UHGV virus genome: UHGV-0117634 | DNA length: 64,000 nucleotides | Source of the DNA: a virus | Strand: one strand, 5' to 3' | Part shown: piece after piece, positions 1 through 46,264 of the stretch | Layout of the letters: every line of letters begins with the position of its first letter | Position numbering within the stretch: position 1 is the first letter of the stretch | Position numbers and translations under genes: made by a program | The notes under the pieces: generated by a model | What the model was told of the DNA's origin: nothing | The model's database searches: none | The model's input: only the letters and a program-made list of their open reading frames with translations

Positions 1-234
1 TAATAAAGCTCTTTATCTGGGGCTTAAGATACTACCTTTTAAACCCCATGTAAAGCACTTTATGAAATAATTTTTATAAAATCTTTCATGGTTATTTTGT
101 CGCCATTTGTTAGGGCTATGCAGTCATTGCCCATCACTGACTTGTAAAGGTAGAAAACCTTCCCAATTTTTGGATAACCATCTAAACCCTTGTAATGTAT
201 TACATCGCTTTCTTTAACCATTGTCAAGCCCTTT

Positions 235-441
235 TTAAACGTTGTAATAATAAATTGCTGTATGTCTTGTAAACTTTCTTGTGTGAGTTGTCAAGTAACA
301 ATCCGAATTAATTGATGTGTCAACATAATTATCATAATCCTTTTCTGATATTCTTTGCCAAACGTCGCAGATTAGCATATAAAAACGGCGTTTCTTTGTT
401 TTGTTGTTGTCAACAATCATTAATTCACGTTGATATAACAT
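235..441 (-). CDS. hypothetical protein (68 aa)
   Basis: ORF-track ORF downstream of the repeat-containing non-coding gap; no recognisable motif. Confidence 0.3.
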   Translation of the reverse strand: MLYQRELMIVDNNKTKKRRFYMLICDVWQRISEKDYDNYVDTSINSDCYLTTHTRKFTRHTAIYYYNV

Positions 442-696
442 CTTAGATTCTCCAGTTTAGGATTGTTGGGGCTTGCTTACCCCGTTGATGCAAATACTAC
501 AAAACTGGATTCATAGAGTCAACAAAATTTTTAAAAATATTTTTGGCATGTTGTGAATGAAACGCGTGTACGCAACTAACAGAAAACAGAAAACTAGTCA
601 AGAATTATTTTTTAGTTCTCTACAAATTTTTCTCTTGACTTTTGGGAGGAAGGGGAGTAAGAGGGGATGGTGGGGCTGGCTTCCTATAGCTACCTA

Positions 697-890
697 CCTG
701 CACAAATTGAAAATGAATTTTCCCTTTGGAGTCCAACTGCATCTGCACAGATTGAAAATGAAAAAGCTCTTTGGAGTCTAGACCTGCACAAATTGAAAAT
801 GAATTTTCCCTTTGGAGTTCAGCTAAAGAAATCTGTCCAGAGTTCTATGCAATTGCACCTGCACAAATTTGAAATGAAAAAGCCCTCCTT
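697..890. repeat. array of four ~37-bp direct repeats (unit ~CTGCACAAATTGAAAATGAA[TTTTCCC/AAAAGCT]CTTTGGAGT), period ~42-44 bp, in a ~500-bp non-coding gap
   Basis: Copies read at ~697, ~741, ~783 and ~857, alternating between two variants; the last copy abuts a long-loop hairpin (GCCCTCC...GGAGGGC) downstream of the macro-domain gene. Confidence 0.7.
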
Positions 891-948
891 ACCTGAGATT
901 TTAAACTCAAACTTTGGAGGGCTTGTCTATGTCTATTTAGGTAACTTA

Positions 949-1743
949 TTAGTTACGTGCTTCAACATAGTTAACATTCTCATGTGTGATATAATCCTCT
1001 GCAAACTCTTCTGTAGCAGCACCGATATACACACTTGCATCATCACCAAATGTTACGGCTCTGTGGCAATGGCCTTGTAACGGGTGGGTAACTTGAGCGT
1101 TACTTTGATTGTACTTCTCAACCGGAGGGTAACTGGTGTGTACCTTGCCATTACGCTTCACCTTGAGGGTAACTTTATCCTTGCCTACCACGGCAACACC
1201 ATCAAAGTATTGAGGTTCACTAAAGTTTTCCCAACCAGTAACCGGATTAGTCAACTGACTGTACATCTTATCTTCATAGACATACATATAAACGTCAACA
1301 TCTTTCATGGTCTGATTGATGATAGACAGCACAGCCATGCTGTCAAGACCACCAATCCCTGCACCAATCATAGGAAGTCCAACTTTCTTAAGCTGGTTCA
1401 CTTTGCAGTAGTTATTAAGACGCTGCAAAGCTGCTTCTAAAGCATTGTATCGTGCATCTTTACCAGTGATAACCTGAGTGTAAAGGTTAGCAATTCGACC
1501 CTGCTTAAAACGTGCTACAGAGATGTTACCAAGCATAAGATGCTTAGGTTTATGACCTTCACCACCAACTGTAGCATAAACTTCAGCGTCAGTCTCATAA
1601 GCTTTTGGATAACGTTTAGCAATTGTTGCTGCAATACCTGCACCCATTAAGTTCATGCAGTTACAACCGTGACCAATGATATCAAACTTCTTATTATCAA
1701 AGTCTTTAAAGATATCACCTTTAATAATTTTTATGATACCCAT
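949..1743 (-). CDS. macro-domain protein (TARG1/DarG-like ADP-ribose-binding/hydrolase fold) fused to a ~100-aa C-terminal domain of unknown function
   Basis: N-terminal GDIF...DIIGHGCNCMNLMGAGIAATIAKRYP and later GLPMIGAGIGGLD match the two glycine-rich ADP-ribose-binding loops of macro domains; C-terminal part (HPLQGHCHRAV...) unrecognised. Confidence 0.65.
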   Translation of the reverse strand: MGIIKIIKGDIFKDFDNKKFDIIGHGCNCMNLMGAGIAATIAKRYPKAYETDAEVYATVGGEGHKPKHLMLGNISVARFKQGRIANLYTQVITGKDARYNALEAALQRLNNYCKVNQLKKVGLPMIGAGIGGLDSMAVLSIINQTMKDVDVYMYVYEDKMYSQLTNPVTGWENFSEPQYFDGVAVVGKDKVTLKVKRNGKVHTSYPPVEKYNQSNAQVTHPLQGHCHRAVTFGDDASVYIGAATEEFAEDYITHENVNYVEARN

Positions 1744-1744
1744 G

Positions 1745-1945
1745 TTACCATTCCTCCCACGATTCTTTATCTTCAGAAGGTTTTACACGTTGCCCTTCAT
1801 GGTCTACCCAGATTCCACCACAACCTTCACAGAGTGTTGGCATAGCATAACCAGCTTTGAAATCATCTTCAGTGATAAGACCTTTCAAGTCTCCTGTATC
1901 ACGTCCAAACATTTCAATAGAACAACTCTTGCAGAAATCAGCCAT
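1745..1945 (-). CDS. small Cys-rich protein, possible zinc ribbon (66 aa)
   Basis: CKSC ... CEGCGG cysteine pairs; start abuts upstream gene. Confidence 0.4.
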   Translation of the reverse strand: MADFCKSCSIEMFGRDTGDLKGLITEDDFKAGYAMPTLCEGCGGIWVDHEGQRVKPSEDKESWEEW

Positions 1946-2159
1946 TTAAGATTACCTCTTGAGTGACTGTACGATTACTGGTGAAAGTCTGTTTAAAACT
2001 TTCAACGTTTGAACGTAAGAAGCCTTCATCCAAATAATATTTGAAGGTTTCTTTATGTGAGAAAACCTCGGTAAACGGGATTACTTCACTTCTCCCTACA
2101 TAGATACCAGATGCTATAATTTGCCGTGTCTTTTTATTTCTGACGATTAGAACTTTCAT
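1938..2159 (-). CDS. hypothetical protein (73 aa)
   Basis: ORF-track ORF in tightly packed leftward operon. Confidence 0.3.
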   Translation of the reverse strand: MKVLIVRNKKTRQIIASGIYVGRSEVIPFTEVFSHKETFKYYLDEGFLRSNVESFKQTFTSNRTVTQEVILNG

Positions 2160-2460
2160 ACATTACCTTTTCAGTTAGTTGATATAAGTCTACATGTTCA
2201 ATGCCAACAATGTCAATACCAATTTTAGCGTAACGCTCTTTGATATCATTATCGTTCATCCAAACGAGACACCAATGATTTCTAACAGACTCTTCGAGCT
2301 TATGTACACAATCTTGGAATGTTGGGGTATCGCCTCTTGTACCAATCATGGCGATTACACCATATAGAAACTCACCATTGCCATATGTCACTTGGGCTAC
2401 ACCAATATCTTTCTCATTATCTGAGAAGACGGCTACAATGGTTTTACCATTAAGTTCCAT
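2134..2460 (-). CDS. hypothetical protein (108 aa)
   Basis: ORF-track ORF; its start overlaps the stop of the upstream small ORF. Confidence 0.4.
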   Translation of the reverse strand: MELNGKTIVAVFSDNEKDIGVAQVTYGNGEFLYGVIAMIGTRGDTPTFQDCVHKLEESVRNHWCLVWMNDNDIKERYAKIGIDIVGIEHVDLYQLTEKVMYESSNRQK

Positions 2461-2620
2461 TATAGATTACCTCTTTAATTTGTTGTAAGATTGCTTCTGA
2501 AGCTTCTTCCCATAAGGTAGAGTTTTCAATTGAATCTTTAACCTGTGCAATACCAATATTAAAACGGGTATCACCATACTCTTCAATCAAGTTAAGAAGC
2601 TTCTGTTTGTCCACAATCAT
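2453..2620 (-). CDS. small hypothetical protein (~55 aa, not in ORF track)
   Basis: ATG preceded by GAGGA Shine-Dalgarno (minus strand AAAAACGAGGAAATG); stop overlaps start of 2134..2460; fills an otherwise empty gap. Confidence 0.4.
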
Positions 2621-2630
2621 TTCCTCGTTT

Positions 2631-2885
2631 TTAACGTTGCGTAGATTTCTTTGGAGTTTTCACCGAACCAGATGTAAGATTCGTGTTGATTTCAGGATGA
2701 TTGTCAACACGAATCTTACATTCTCTTCCAACATGTTTTAACTGTGCTGTAATACCCTGAATAAACAGGTGACACATTACATCATCCATGATAGTTGGTA
2801 AGAAATCAATTCTCATATAAGTGTTACTTGGTCTTGGAAGAAGTAAGTAACCTTCTACATAAAACGTTTCACTCTTTTCTGTCAT
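2631..2885 (-). CDS. hypothetical protein (84 aa)
   Basis: ORF-track ORF. Confidence 0.4.
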   Translation of the reverse strand: MTEKSETFYVEGYLLLPRPSNTYMRIDFLPTIMDDVMCHLFIQGITAQLKHVGRECKIRVDNHPEINTNLTSGSVKTPKKSTQR

Positions 2886-3151
2886 TGCTGTTTATTCCCT
2901 AACAAAATCATATCAATCAAATTGTTTGCCTTGATAGCACATTCATAGAATCCATCACGATAAAACTCCATAGCACTAGCAAGGTCTTCACCCTTAGTAC
3001 CCTTGACAGTGTACCTAGTCTCTTCCTGAGTGTACTTGTCACTCTCACTTACTTGGGAGTTTTTGAAGGTACTGTTCACTTTGTTGGTTGAACACCCCGA
3101 TATAAGGCTCAGTAGCACAAATATTATAAAACTCTGTCTTAGTTTTTTCAT
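2882..3151 (-). CDS. lipoprotein, candidate o-spanin (overlapped with upstream gene)
   Basis: Signal peptide with lipobox (LSLISG-C); starts inside the 3' end of 3045..3392 in another frame and extends beyond it (Rz/Rz1-like overlapped architecture). Not proline-rich, so uncertain. Confidence 0.4.
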   Translation of the reverse strand: MKKLRQSFIIFVLLSLISGCSTNKVNSTFKNSQVSESDKYTQEETRYTVKGTKGEDLASAMEFYRDGFYECAIKANNLIDMILLGNKQQ

Positions 3152-3392: not shown

Positions 3393-3411
3393 TTAACTTC
3401 TCCTATAAATG

Positions 3412-3433
3412 AAAAAGGCTCCCGAAGGAGCCT
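3412..3433 (-). terminator. rho-independent terminator (minus strand GGCTCC-TTCG-GGAGCC then T-run)
   Basis: Plus strand AAAAAGGCTCCCGAAGGAGCCT; perfect stem, tetraloop, T-run on minus strand; follows 3445..3909. Confidence 0.6.
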
Positions 3434-3920: not shown

Positions 3921-4616
3921 TCAGTTTTTAACTAACATTGTTTTAATGTGTGGAAGGATTCTTTCGACCTTTGCCACGTTCTTTACTGTATCTTCTATAA
4001 AGCATACTACATCATAGTAAGGTAGAATGCAAGACTGAAGCATACGAACTTTCAAACTTTCTGCACTAATCTCATTGTCACCAAATCCACGCATAAACAG
4101 TAAGAAATCACTGTCTACATTTTCATTCAGGAAGAGATGAGTGACCACTCTCTGTGATTCACCACGAGCAGTTAAGAATCCTATATCAGCATTTTGTGAT
4201 ATCCCACACAGGATGTTAAAAACATAAGTTGGTTTAGCTCTGCGAGAGTCCACCAAGTTAGTGTACTGTGAGTAAGTACCATCATCTAACAGAGTTGCAT
4301 TAAGTTTCTTATCAAAACTTGTAAGAACACCATCAATATCTGCTAAGACCATTTTACGTTTTTCTTCCAAGTTCTTTGCAACCAAGATAAGACTATTACG
4401 ACCCACATATACAGTCTTACCTGTTAGCAAATCTTGACAAGGAATCTGTGTCTTTGTTGAATGAAAGTCTTCAAAGCTACATGCAACACATCTTGCTGTA
4501 TCTGCAAAGTCAGCTTTAGCAACGTCTGACCAGCTTGCATAACTGATATCTAAATCAAGTGGTTTGATATCATAAGCATGACACAGAACCGTATCAAATT
4601 GTTTTGATTCGCTCAT
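3921..4616 (-). CDS. HAD-like phosphatase-domain protein (putative nucleotidase), N-terminal region unknown
   Basis: LADIDGVLT matches HAD motif I (DxDG[TV]); later GFGDNE resembles motif IV. Confidence 0.35.
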   Translation of the reverse strand: MSESKQFDTVLCHAYDIKPLDLDISYASWSDVAKADFADTARCVACSFEDFHSTKTQIPCQDLLTGKTVYVGRNSLILVAKNLEEKRKMVLADIDGVLTSFDKKLNATLLDDGTYSQYTNLVDSRRAKPTYVFNILCGISQNADIGFLTARGESQRVVTHLFLNENVDSDFLLFMRGFGDNEISAESLKVRMLQSCILPYYDVVCFIEDTVKNVAKVERILPHIKTMLVKN

Positions 4617-5142: not shown

Positions 5143-5206
5143 TTGCACTCCTATTTTGTTAAACATGCAGACAATTATACATCATCCTGCACATTTTTCA
5201 AATAAA

Positions 5207-5229
5207 AAAGGCTGCCGAAGCAGCCCTTT
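5207..5229 (-). terminator. rho-independent terminator after rIIB
   Basis: Plus AAAAAAGGCTGCCGAAGCAGCCCTTT; stem GGCTGC/GCAGCC with CGAA loop, flanking A/T runs. Confidence 0.55.
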
Positions 5230-20036: not shown

Positions 20037-20308
20037 TCTGGTAATTTTCCTGTTCTGAACATATCTCTCGCAGCTTGTCTTGTAAGGACTAGCCAGTTTT
20101 CCATATTAAATAACTCAGGTGCTCTAACATATTCTTTGCCGCCATTAAAGCAGTCAATATATCTCACACATTTCTTCCAAGAATCATCATCCTGCTTTAC
20201 CATTACCTCTGTACTGGCAACATAGTAAAGTGTATTTCTTGGCTTATACATCAGATAAACAGATTTACCTTCTGCTTTATTTCTTGCGGATTCTATTAAG
20301 TCTATCAT
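20033..20308 (-). CDS. hypothetical protein inserted between nrdA and nrdB (~91 aa)
   Basis: ORF-track ORF trimmed to internal Met with GGAGAG RBS and TAACTTT leader; longer version would overlap nrdA. Confidence 0.4.
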   Translation of the reverse strand: MIDLIESARNKAEGKSVYLMYKPRNTLYYVASTEVMVKQDDDSWKKCVRYIDCFNGGKEYVRAPELFNMENWLVLTRQAARDMFRTGKLPE

Positions 20309-20363
20309 AGACTCTCCAAAGTTAATTTTAGAGGGTCTTTTACGACCCTCATAGTTATTGAAA

Positions 20364-31388: not shown

Positions 31389-31648
31389 AATTGCCTCTGT
31401 TAAGTATCTATAAAGATTTTAATCTCTTATCTTTATGTATGTTATACATATAACTTTAAAGCTTTTTTAAAAGCTATTAAAAATCTTTTGAGACTTTTAA
31501 AGAAACTGTATAGTTAATCTATAAAGGGAGTCTATTAAGATAAAACCCACTTCGAAAAGACTAACACCTTGTCAAGCAGTTTGTCAACTTGCTTTTTGCA
31601 GAAAATTGCTGTAGGGTATTATCCAGAATGATTTGAGAGGGAGTAAAA
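31389..31648. promoter_or_regulatory. divergent AT-rich control region with palindromes (AGCTTTTTTAAAAGCT; TATGTATgttATACATA) and TTGTCAA direct repeats
   Basis: 260-bp gene-free gap between oppositely oriented blocks; a 16-bp perfect palindrome at ~31466..31481; candidate operators and promoters, exact -35/-10 not resolved. Confidence 0.45.
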
Positions 31649-45368: not shown

Positions 45369-46264
45369 TATGAACTTCCTTCTTGTTGAGATTTATCTTT
45401 TCTGCCTTTGACGATTTGGGCGACTTCTGCCATAATCCCATAATCACCACCTGCTACTGTTTCTTTACCAGCAATGAAATAGTCGTTGCTATTGTTTGTT
45501 TTGCTGACTTTTAAATAATCTTTACTGGTACTTCCACCAGTTTTATCCACTCTTACATAACCATCCCTTACACCTGCATCTGCAAAACTACCTAATTTGT
45601 TTGCTTCTAGAGAGCCACCTGTGTTGTTCGTAATAAGACCCTTGTTAGTGTTTGTTACAAACCAGTTATTGTTCTCATCAGTAATTGCCAGAGATGAATC
45701 AGCAACCTCTACAGGAGTCCAAGCAGTACCATTTAAGGTAACATCTCTAAGGATAACTGCTGAACCAATAGTTGTTGCAGCAATCTTAGAAAGTGTGTAT
45801 GCTGTATCTAACACGTTATTACGAGTGTTTACACGGATAACAATTCCACCAGTCATTGGCGTAATGTGCTCAAAAATCTGACTGAATGATGCGTTGTAAA
45901 GGGTCATAACAGCCCTTTGTAAGAAGCTTGGTGTGGTGTCAGAACGTCTTAAGAAAATTTGAATGTAGAGGATAGCTCTGTAAGTGTCATCATCAGCACC
46001 AATAGGTCTAGGGACTTTAATCAAAGCCCCGATGTTATCAAGTTGTGTGCCAACACCTACACGAATATTCCTTTCAGTATATAACTGATTACTGATATCC
46101 TCTAATAATTGTAACTCATCTGTGATAGATTTCAATAGACTTGTGTAAATAAACTTATCTTTGAATTGAGTTACAGTTCTTTCGTCCAATGTTTTCTCAT
46201 AAAAGTTTTCAATCTTTTTAAACATTGTTACTCCTTGGTAATTGTATACTGTGAGCTTTCCCAA
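45368..46264 (-). CDS. baseplate protein (P2 gpI-like position)
   Basis: Synteny only. Confidence 0.35.

Follow-up and report, generated by a model that had tools for sequence, protein, structure and literature searches.

A conserved array of four bipartite repeats, tentatively read as protein-binding sites, in the largest non-coding gap of a Felix-O1-like phage genome

The DNA analysed here is a 64,000-nucleotide (64-kb) stretch of UHGV virus genome UHGV-0117634, which we call the window and number from its first letter. It belongs to a Felix-O1-like myovirus of the subfamily Ounavirinae with a genome of about 89 kb, and positions 300-1100 are 99.1% identical to Citrobacter phage HP1 (Mooglevirus) and match 256 phage records. 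The element in question is an array of four direct repeats within a gap at 442-948 that is flanked by two minus-strand genes, a 68-amino-acid open reading frame (ORF) at 235-441 and a macro-domain gene at 949-1743. A first-pass annotation had described this gap as unusually large and devoid of a convincing ORF. It spans 507 bp and is the largest non-coding gap of the window; plus-strand ORFs of 74 amino acids (557-781) and 137 amino acids (667-1080) do exist here, but they fail the coding tests given below.

The four repeats reported by that annotation are confirmed at 696-899, where they occur as 43-nt units at 696-738, 741-783, 782-824 and 857-899. Copies 2, 3 and 4 are 74%, 95% and 63% identical to copy 1. 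The start-to-start intervals are 45, 41 and 75 bp, so that the uniform spacing of about 42-44 bp claimed earlier does not hold, and Tandem Repeats Finder reports a repeat of period 41 at 696-818 (score 160). The proposed alternation of two variants is borne out: copies 1 and 3 end in AAATGA-ATTTTC (T-tract) and copies 2 and 4 in AAATGA-AAAAGC (A-tract). We also agree that the array is not made of clustered regularly interspaced short palindromic repeats (CRISPR), since the gaps between the 43-nt units measure 2, -2 (a 2-nt overlap) and 32 nt, which is too short for spacers, and the sequence between copies is conserved between phages rather than unique.

Each unit carries a plus-strand site of about 24 bp. 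Site 1 (699-722, T-tract type) consists of TGCAC at 699-703, a 7-nt spacer, AAATGA at 711-716 and ATTTTC, and site 3 (785-808, also T-tract type) has TGCAC at 785-789, AAATGA at 797-802 and ATTTTC, with 37 of 37 bases identical to copy 1. The two A-tract sites are site 2 (744-767), with TGCAC at 744-748 and AAATGA at 756-761 followed by AAAAAG, and site 4 (860-883), with TGCAC at 860-864 and AAATGA at 872-877, likewise followed by AAAAAG, whose A-tract is the reverse complement of a terminator U-tract. A search of the 64 kb with the 21-nt core CCTGCACAAATTGAAAATGAA, allowing up to three mismatches, returns four matches, all of them the array copies; 0.03 matches are expected by chance, and none of 100 shuffled sequences contained four or more. 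No copy beyond the array was found by self-comparison of the window or by scanning the remaining 25 kb of the HP1 genome for the motif, and the composite element is limited to the array locus within the ~89-kb genome.

To describe the motif we aligned 128 copies (69 of them distinct) from about 35 phages of the genera Mooglevirus, Suspvirus, Felixounavirus and Kolesnikvirus. The resulting element is asymmetric and about 24 bp long, and it reads TGCAC, seven semi-variable positions, AAATGA and an A/T tract, with the same orientation in all copies. T-G-C-A-C and A-A-A-T-(G)-A are invariant, being the same in the 69 distinct copies. The length of the spacer between them is fixed at seven, and its positions are constrained only to the classes R, W, W, Y, Y, K and R. 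The 3' flank consists of four or five A's or T's and then C.

Conservation in related phages, which had been suggested as a check, gives a clear result, as all the Felix-O1-like phages that we examined have kept the array. Genomes of Mooglevirus, Suspvirus and Felixounavirus carry it at the same place and in the same orientation, usually with spacings of 45/39/73 bp (Felix type) or 45/41/75 bp. A few phages have three copies, apparently as the result of a deletion by unequal crossover. The Kolesnikviruses of Erwinia and Hafnia contain four copies and a degenerate fifth in a regular tandem with a period of 38-39 bp and the core (C/T)TATGCAC-N6-AAAAT(G/A)A. Their macro-domain protein is 35% identical to that of the window, and within their gap the array is the only part that can still be aligned with the phages of E. 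coli and Salmonella. Between genera, the four 24-bp sites are 85-91% identical, compared with 55-60% for the adjoining hairpin and 43-71% for the adjacent coding DNA. Selection on the element at the nucleotide level is strong across the Ounavirinae, and the array is the most conserved non-coding DNA that we found in the subfamily.

Outside this subfamily the array was not encountered. A pattern scan of 185,579 bacterial and archaeal genomes found no such array; it returned 17 unrelated matches in metagenome-assembled genomes, none of them in Enterobacterales. The pattern used for viral and metagenome contigs was over-loose and mostly retrieved unrelated tandem repeats, with true arrays in Ounavirinae-type contigs only. 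One unrelated 10-kb viral contig (L040, 6246-6344) contains two direct repeats of 49-50 bp with CACTGCAC-N6-AAAATGA-TTG-TTTTT directly upstream of an operon for the small and large terminase subunits and the portal, and a 16-bp repeat pair (CATAAGCCCTACTTAT) lies nearby. This resemblance is probably coincidental, because the search pattern itself demanded the core.

The last copy of the array runs into a hairpin. The first-pass annotation had noted a long-loop hairpin behind the macro-domain gene, and this hairpin is real: it occupies 880-924 on the minus strand and is the intrinsic terminator of the macro-domain operon, with a CUUUUUCAUUUC run that follows it on the minus-strand RNA only. Together with its T-tract it covers 868-924, where both a G+C-rich hairpin and a U-run on the transcribed strand are present, and its counterpart in Felix O1 is terminator t13 (Whichard et al. 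2010, PMC3185647, Table 2). Copy 4 overlaps the T-tract of this minus-strand terminator, which the annotation had not mentioned. The hairpin is stronger as minus-strand RNA because it contains G-U pairs, and the energies on the minus and plus strands are -21.3 versus -20.3 kcal/mol in the window, -23.6 versus -10.5 kcal/mol in SP3 (Felix type) and -11.8 versus -9.3 kcal/mol in Roscha1 (Kolesnikvirus). A terminator scan of relatives gave matches at the homologous place in SP3 and Roscha1.

This same hairpin and T-tract is the only part of the array that had already been published. The Felix O1 genome paper (PMC3185647) lists the terminator as well as repeats of at least 24 bp elsewhere in the genome, and the four-copy array beside t13 is not among them; nor is the array described in the other literature that we searched. 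Felix O1 and related phages are classical tools for typing Salmonella and have been candidates for use in phage therapy, and the genome paper states that the temporal regulation of their transcription is not understood (PMC3185647).

The tail AAATGAAAAAG occurs with a hairpin at two other terminators of the window. At 3395-3432 the hairpin GGCTCC-CGAA-GGAGCC carries the tail AAATGAAAAAGG, as in array copies 2 and 4, and terminators of this phage seem to end as a rule in a CUUUUUCAUUU run (Felix O1 t5 and t13). At 5186-5225 a single look-alike, CCTGCAC-N7-AAATAAAAAAGG, adjoins the hairpin GGCTGC-CGAA-GCAGCC, which is the terminator after rIIB (Felix O1 t2), and overlaps a minus-strand promoter of the form TTGAAA-N16-TATAAT. 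Felix O1 t2 as printed reads TATTTT... where the window has GAAAAATGTGCAGG, and the printed part ends before the position of GTGCAG. Judged by this printed part, the look-alike itself (5186-5205) is probably not conserved in Felix O1 and is probably a chance match.

On its other side the array is approached by a putative plus-strand promoter, P(+), at 635-663. It is of the sigma-70 type, and its hexamers in the window are TTGACT-N17-TAAGAG, preceded by an AT-rich UP-like stretch; the -10 hexamer is poor, having G instead of T at position 6, and a promoter scan does not report it. The homologue in Roscha1 is TTGACG-N18-TATACT and scores 10/12, and among Kolesnikviruses both hexamers are invariant, with five substitutions in the spacer. 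Felix-type phages have TTGACT-N17-TAGCCT preceded by TG. Because the hexamers of the Kolesnikvirus and Felix types are good or at least acceptable, transcription into the array is likely in two or more lineages. Back-to-back with the -35 box of P(+) lies a minus-strand -35-like TTGACT (reverse complement of 596-601), and the two boxes are separated by an AT spacer at 602-634 (33 bp, 79% A+T). The region 596-634 is 87-93% identical to loci retrieved by BLAST, and the back-to-back layout also occurs in Roscha1; the order of elements across the gap as a whole is conserved.

Farther from the array, a sigma-70-type promoter on the minus strand (494-522, TTGACT-N17-TAGTAT) serves the first gene of an early 'cassette' block, followed by an 18-nt leader with a Shine-Dalgarno sequence, AACAATCCTAAACTGGAG, at 450-467 of the minus strand. 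This leader is the first of at least 12 copies that head early-block genes: AACAATCCTAAACTGGAG is found once in the 64-kb window and 11 times, with 0-3 mismatches, in the following 7.3 kb of HP1 (L037, 340-6037). In phage Mordin, part of it is annotated as a 14-bp repeat_region. The distribution of AACAATCCTAAACTGGAG places the array at the inner border of an early block of at least 12 genes that extends from the array to the right terminal repeat and points outward. HP1 has annotated terminal repeats of 570 bp, and 7.7-7.9 kb, or about 8.7% of the genome, separate its array from the right end; the Roscha1 record starts at the homologous place. In UAB_Phi87, terminal repeats of 608 bp were shown experimentally (PMC4837284). 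The array therefore lies between the terminator of the rIIA-to-macro-domain operon and the divergent promoter pair that starts the early block, and P(+) is directed away from the right end and into the genome interior.

Among the functions suggested in the first-pass annotation, an array of protein-binding sites is the best-supported prediction, given the bipartite invariant motif, the fixed spacer, the A5/T5 flanks and the unique locus. We tentatively propose that the repeats are duplex-DNA sites for a monomeric protein that makes two contacts, in the manner of a marbox, and that at the inner edge of the early block they may build a complex that exerts control in cis and might be an origin; we rate this reading as plausible and somewhat short of probable. 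Recognition as duplex DNA is favoured because the two invariant blocks are about one helical turn apart and are joined by a spacer that is fixed in length and free in sequence. It is also favoured because A5 and T5 form the same A-tract in a duplex but differ as RNA. The single orientation of all copies fits this reading too. The confinement of the motif to a single locus fits a cis-acting site rather than a general promoter.

If this is correct, a sequence-specific protein would read each element as duplex DNA and contact two neighbouring major grooves as a monomer, with the geometry that AraC/XylS-type proteins with two helix-turn-helix motifs adopt on marboxes (GCAC, an AT-rich spacer and AAA). 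The genome's single large non-coding region would then carry an assembly of four such proteins. This complex could act in cis as a site of initiation or organisation, which would make it in effect a replication origin, and the conserved promoter might switch it on by transcribing into the array. An origin-type site is our best single guess for the job of this complex, chosen because of the four A-tract sites, the AT-rich segment, the flanking promoters and the status of the gap as the only large non-coding region; taken by itself, the guess is still a rather doubtful one. Whichever function applies, an array at the border of the early 'host-takeover' block offers a mutable handle for an origin, a boundary or insulator, an entry site or a binding protein.

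Several observations weigh against binding sites of this kind, and against an origin in particular. Iterons comprise at least three direct repeats of a 17-24-bp site, and four sites of about 24 bp are present here. Their regular, helix-phased spacing is lacking: the intervals are irregular and out of helix phase in the window (45/41/75 bp) and in the Felix type (45/39/73 bp), and the Kolesnikvirus period of 38-39 bp is also out of phase. Pfam searches found no recognisable DNA-binding or initiator domain in 20 small early-region proteins or in 10 large ORFs from the nucleotide-metabolism/replication region, two of which have no match at all; no Rep-, O- or DnaA-like domain was seen in these 30 proteins, many of which are without a Pfam match. 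A primase-helicase and a family-A polymerase make the replisome T7-like, and T7 itself replicates with this kind of machinery in the absence of iterons. The cumulative GC skew does not change course at the array, although this test is weak, as the skew mainly follows the direction of transcription. The argument from the A5/T5 flanks presupposes four copies of equal function. Half of the motif, AAATGA-AAAAG, doubles as the generic terminator tail of this phage (3407-3418; Felix O1 t5 and t13), so that part of the conservation could reflect termination. Finally, a conserved promoter directed into the array would suit an RNA product equally well.

The lambda origin has four O-protein sites with A-tract bends, and plasmid iterons are similar. 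The array resembles them in having four direct repeats, in the range of about 19-24 bp, that each stand beside an A/T tract within a large non-coding region with an AT-rich segment and with flanking promoters that could activate an origin. It differs from them by its irregular, unphased spacing, by the lack of a recognisable initiator gene and by the T7-like replisome. The primary origin of T7 and oriF and oriG of T4 consist of a promoter and a downstream AT-rich unwinding region with no repeated sequence-specific motif. The present phage would share with them a promoter that fires into a non-coding segment rich in A/T tracts, as well as a T7-like primase-helicase and family-A polymerase, but the array has a repeated motif and P(+) would use the host RNA polymerase, with a weak -10 in the window. 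The conserved 79% A+T stretch at 602-634, some 65 bp away from site 1, is a candidate for an unwinding element, and UP elements (upstream AT-rich promoter enhancers) of the two back-to-back promoters would account for it just as well. A cluster of DnaA boxes was considered and rejected: against the consensus TT(A/T)TNCACA (10.1101/866236), ACCTGCACA and ATCTGCACA of the window match at only 6-7 of 9 positions, and CTATGCACA and TTATGCACG of Kolesnikviruses match at 8 of 9.

The main rival to protein-binding sites is an unstructured plus-strand RNA of about 260-330 nt that would start at P(+). Its repeats could act as linear modules, for instance as a sponge or decoy that takes up an RNA-binding factor of the host or the phage, or the RNA could be an antisense or interfering transcript that enters the 3' end of the macro-domain operon. 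This is a live rival, of limited probability, because a promoter points into the array; this promoter is present in the relatives examined, its hexamers are invariant in Kolesnikviruses, and all copies have its orientation. In Kolesnikviruses conservation is higher all the way from promoter to hairpin than on either side, including a repeat-free leader of 140 nt with one compensatory pair. The transcript would be A/U-rich and largely unfolded (-36.6 kcal/mol for 275 nt in SP3). Against this idea, the -10 hexamer TAAGAG of the window lacks the conserved final T, and a discrete 3' end is doubtful because no U-tract follows the hairpin on the plus strand and the hairpin makes a poor plus-strand terminator (-10.5 versus -23.6 kcal/mol on the minus strand in the Felix type and -9.3 versus -11.8 kcal/mol in Kolesnikviruses). 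Moreover, A5 and U5 flanks are not equivalent as RNA, and a spacer of fixed length and variable sequence is more typical of DNA recognition.

An RNA product would also be one with no Rfam family, no significant stability and no shared fold. The first-pass annotation had listed a structured non-coding RNA as a candidate, and this suggestion did not survive the comparison. With permissive thresholds the best Rfam hit has an E-value of 0.54, far below the gathering score. Folding z-scores of -0.72 and -0.37, for which both strands were folded, are indistinguishable from those of shuffled sequence, and the minimum-energy folds differ among three lineages with none in common. A RegA-like translational operator, as in T4, was considered as well; tblastn found no RegA homologue, in what is a weak test.

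A terminator-derived insulator is a less likely explanation. The copies would then be tandem duplicates of the t13 tail (the T-tract and about 20 bp downstream), kept as a series of termination or pause modules that, with the opposing P(+), block read-through from the rIIA-to-macro-domain operon into the early block. This would account for the array being exactly at a transcription-unit boundary, for copy 4 containing the T-tract of a real terminator and for the last copy abutting the hairpin in every lineage. AAAT(G/A)AAAAAG also stands beside the hairpin at two more terminators (3407-3432 and 5205-5225), and copy 2 resembles copy 4 with the interior of the hairpin removed (AAAAAGCTC-TTTGGAG). 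On the other side, copies 1-3 have no credible hairpin (stems of 3-4 bp), copies 1 and 3 have no minus-strand T-tract, and a terminator scan of window positions 1-3000 finds nothing. The most conserved block, TGCAC, would be downstream of the point of transcript release, and no terminator model accounts for it.

A more specific version of DNA binding, in which the sites are genuine host marboxes that recruit or titrate the stress regulators MarA, SoxS, Rob and RamA, is quite improbable. We scored the array with a matrix built from 111 sites for these four proteins from chromatin immunoprecipitation sequencing (15-bp motif GCACnnnnTGnnAAA with G10 and A13-A15 nearly invariant; median 10.8 bits, lower quartile 7.4 bits). 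Copies 1-3 score 9.8-10.3 bits and rank 32nd, 33rd and 42nd among about 128,000 window positions, and across lineages two or three copies per array reach 8.6-10.3 bits. The layout of GCAC, AT-rich spacer and A-run is shared, and Felix-type copy 2 (GCACGTTTTGAAAAT) has 11 of 15 bases in common with the E. coli marRAB marbox (ccacgttttgctaaa). These regulators are common to enterobacterial hosts (PMC5684230). On the other side, copy 4 scores only 3.5 bits, and one or two copies per array are at 1.6-5 bits. About 30 unrelated window positions score higher than the array, which puts the match within chance for such a degenerate motif. G10, the most conserved marbox base (98 of 111 sites), is missing from about half of the phage copies, all of which have T in place of A15 (96 of 111 sites), and the phage-invariant T0, T15, G16 and A17 have no marbox counterpart. 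No promoter lies at a class I or class II distance from the sites.

Phage site and marbox are both asymmetric bipartite elements of about 20 bp with an AT-rich spacer of fixed length and a single orientation, and the scores of two or three copies per array, close to the median of real sites, count in favour of marbox-like geometry; the phage differs by its four tandem copies, an extra invariant T before GCAC and TGA after the A-run. From this comparison we conclude that the phage site would work like a marbox, and we do not class it as one.

By analogy with other phages, the array and P(+) could form an element that controls DNA entry, a reading that we consider very unlikely. Such an element could stop injection as in T5, by means of a host or early phage protein, and it could also (or instead) be the place where internalisation driven by RNA polymerase begins, at P(+). 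In T7, the host RNA polymerase pulls the genome in by transcription. If the right end enters first, the segment of about 8.7% with at least 12 outward early genes would go in first. To our knowledge, two-step DNA entry is not known for these phages or for this myovirus family, and if true it would be a two-step entry mechanism in that family. The injection-stop signal (iss) region of T5, as analysed in silico, is about 1.2-1.7 kb long, forms part of a 10-kb terminal repeat and contains paired DnaA boxes as well as palindromes (bioRxiv 10.1101/866236). Like the iss region, the array is in the largest untranslated, repeat-rich region and is better conserved than the neighbouring genes, and each stands some 8-9% of the genome in from one physical end, where a block of early genes directed toward that end has its inner border. 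In contrast, the array is 200 bp of direct repeats that lies 7.7 kb inside a 570-bp terminal repeat, and the cores in the window match the DnaA box at only 6-7 of 9 positions.

A small plus-strand protein gene that spans the repeats is the least credible of the alternatives. Such genes are annotated in Moogle (gp115), Silverhawkium (gp124), mistaenkt (mistaenkt_18), Mordin (Mordin_126) and Roscha1 (Roscha1_00126), and an ORF is present in ESh21; open frames of 201-499 nt cover three or four copies in every genome, the spacings of 45 and 39 bp are divisible by three, and a Shine-Dalgarno-like GGAG precedes ATG 667 by 9 nt. The annotated ORFs of Moogle, Mordin, ESh21, Silverhawkium, mistaenkt and Roscha1 are at L001 3258-3482, L002 3364-3552, L006 1756-2049, L009 1616-1969, L010 1757-2065 and L046 3815-3979. 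The pattern of substitution argues against coding: the numbers of variable columns at the three codon positions are 23/22/25, with no excess at the third, compared with 38/32/60 in the macro-domain gene of the same genomes, and the 69 copies show no synonymous change in CTG, CAC, AAA or ATG. The reading frame is not kept either. Frames of the copies are [1,1,0,0], [0,0,0,1] or [1,1,1,1] by clade, the fourth copy is out of frame in most genomes, and translation of copy 1 from the aligned ATG gives PAQIENE for the Moogle type and LH.SKM for the Felix type. There are indels of 2, 4 and 10 nt, one phage (L032) combines a 10-nt deletion with an in-frame stop, and the frame of EaTu10 ends before the array. 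In the window, ATG 557 is upstream of the putative P(+), and the annotated ORFs are on the strand opposite to all of their neighbours. The plus-strand 'hypothetical proteins' that GenBank records show over the array are therefore probably annotation artefacts rather than genes.

Other known elements were rejected after comparison with the motif. Tandem sigma-70 promoters formed by the repeats do not fit, since position 2 of the -10-like (T/G)AAAAT is A in only 71% of copies while the TGA that follows is invariant, -35-like hexamers occur at some unit junctions only and the motif is absent upstream of other genes. The GG-N10-GC register of a sigma-54 promoter does not fit, the consensus sequences of IHF and Fis sites mismatch invariant bases, and a packaging site is incompatible with the location of the array, which is 7.7 kb away from the terminal repeat and also distant from the terminase gene. 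In Roscha1 (L046 3775-3840, minus strand), TTGCCA of one unit is 17 bp from the (T/G)AAAAT of the next, and the promoter scan calls this pair sigma-70-like; the unit junctions of that lineage only may be weak internal promoters.

Some smaller features accompany P(+) and the leader downstream of it. A plus-strand tract with four runs of 3-4 G's and loops of 5-7 nt is present at 644-675, inside P(+) and just past it. This G-quadruplex-type motif occurs in the Moogle and Susp types, is richer in some Susp-like contigs and is absent from the Felix type; in Kolesnikviruses a related GGGGCTGGCT follows the promoter. The leader of Kolesnikviruses (L046 ~3945-3975, minus strand) contains a hairpin, GCCGG...CGGC, that becomes ACCGG...CGGT in Ea_Tu10 and vEam_PM_27 (L064 and L065). 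This change amounts to one compensatory pair, and the whole of this leader, which separates promoter and array, shows higher conservation than the sequence around it.

Three other sizeable non-coding gaps, at 20037-20363, 31389-31648 and 45882-46227, contain neither the motif nor a tandem repeat. One of them is between two ribonucleotide-reductase genes, one separates the divergent primase-helicase block and family-A DNA polymerase, and one precedes a 489-aa gene. The divergent gap beside the polymerase is an alternative location to consider for an origin.

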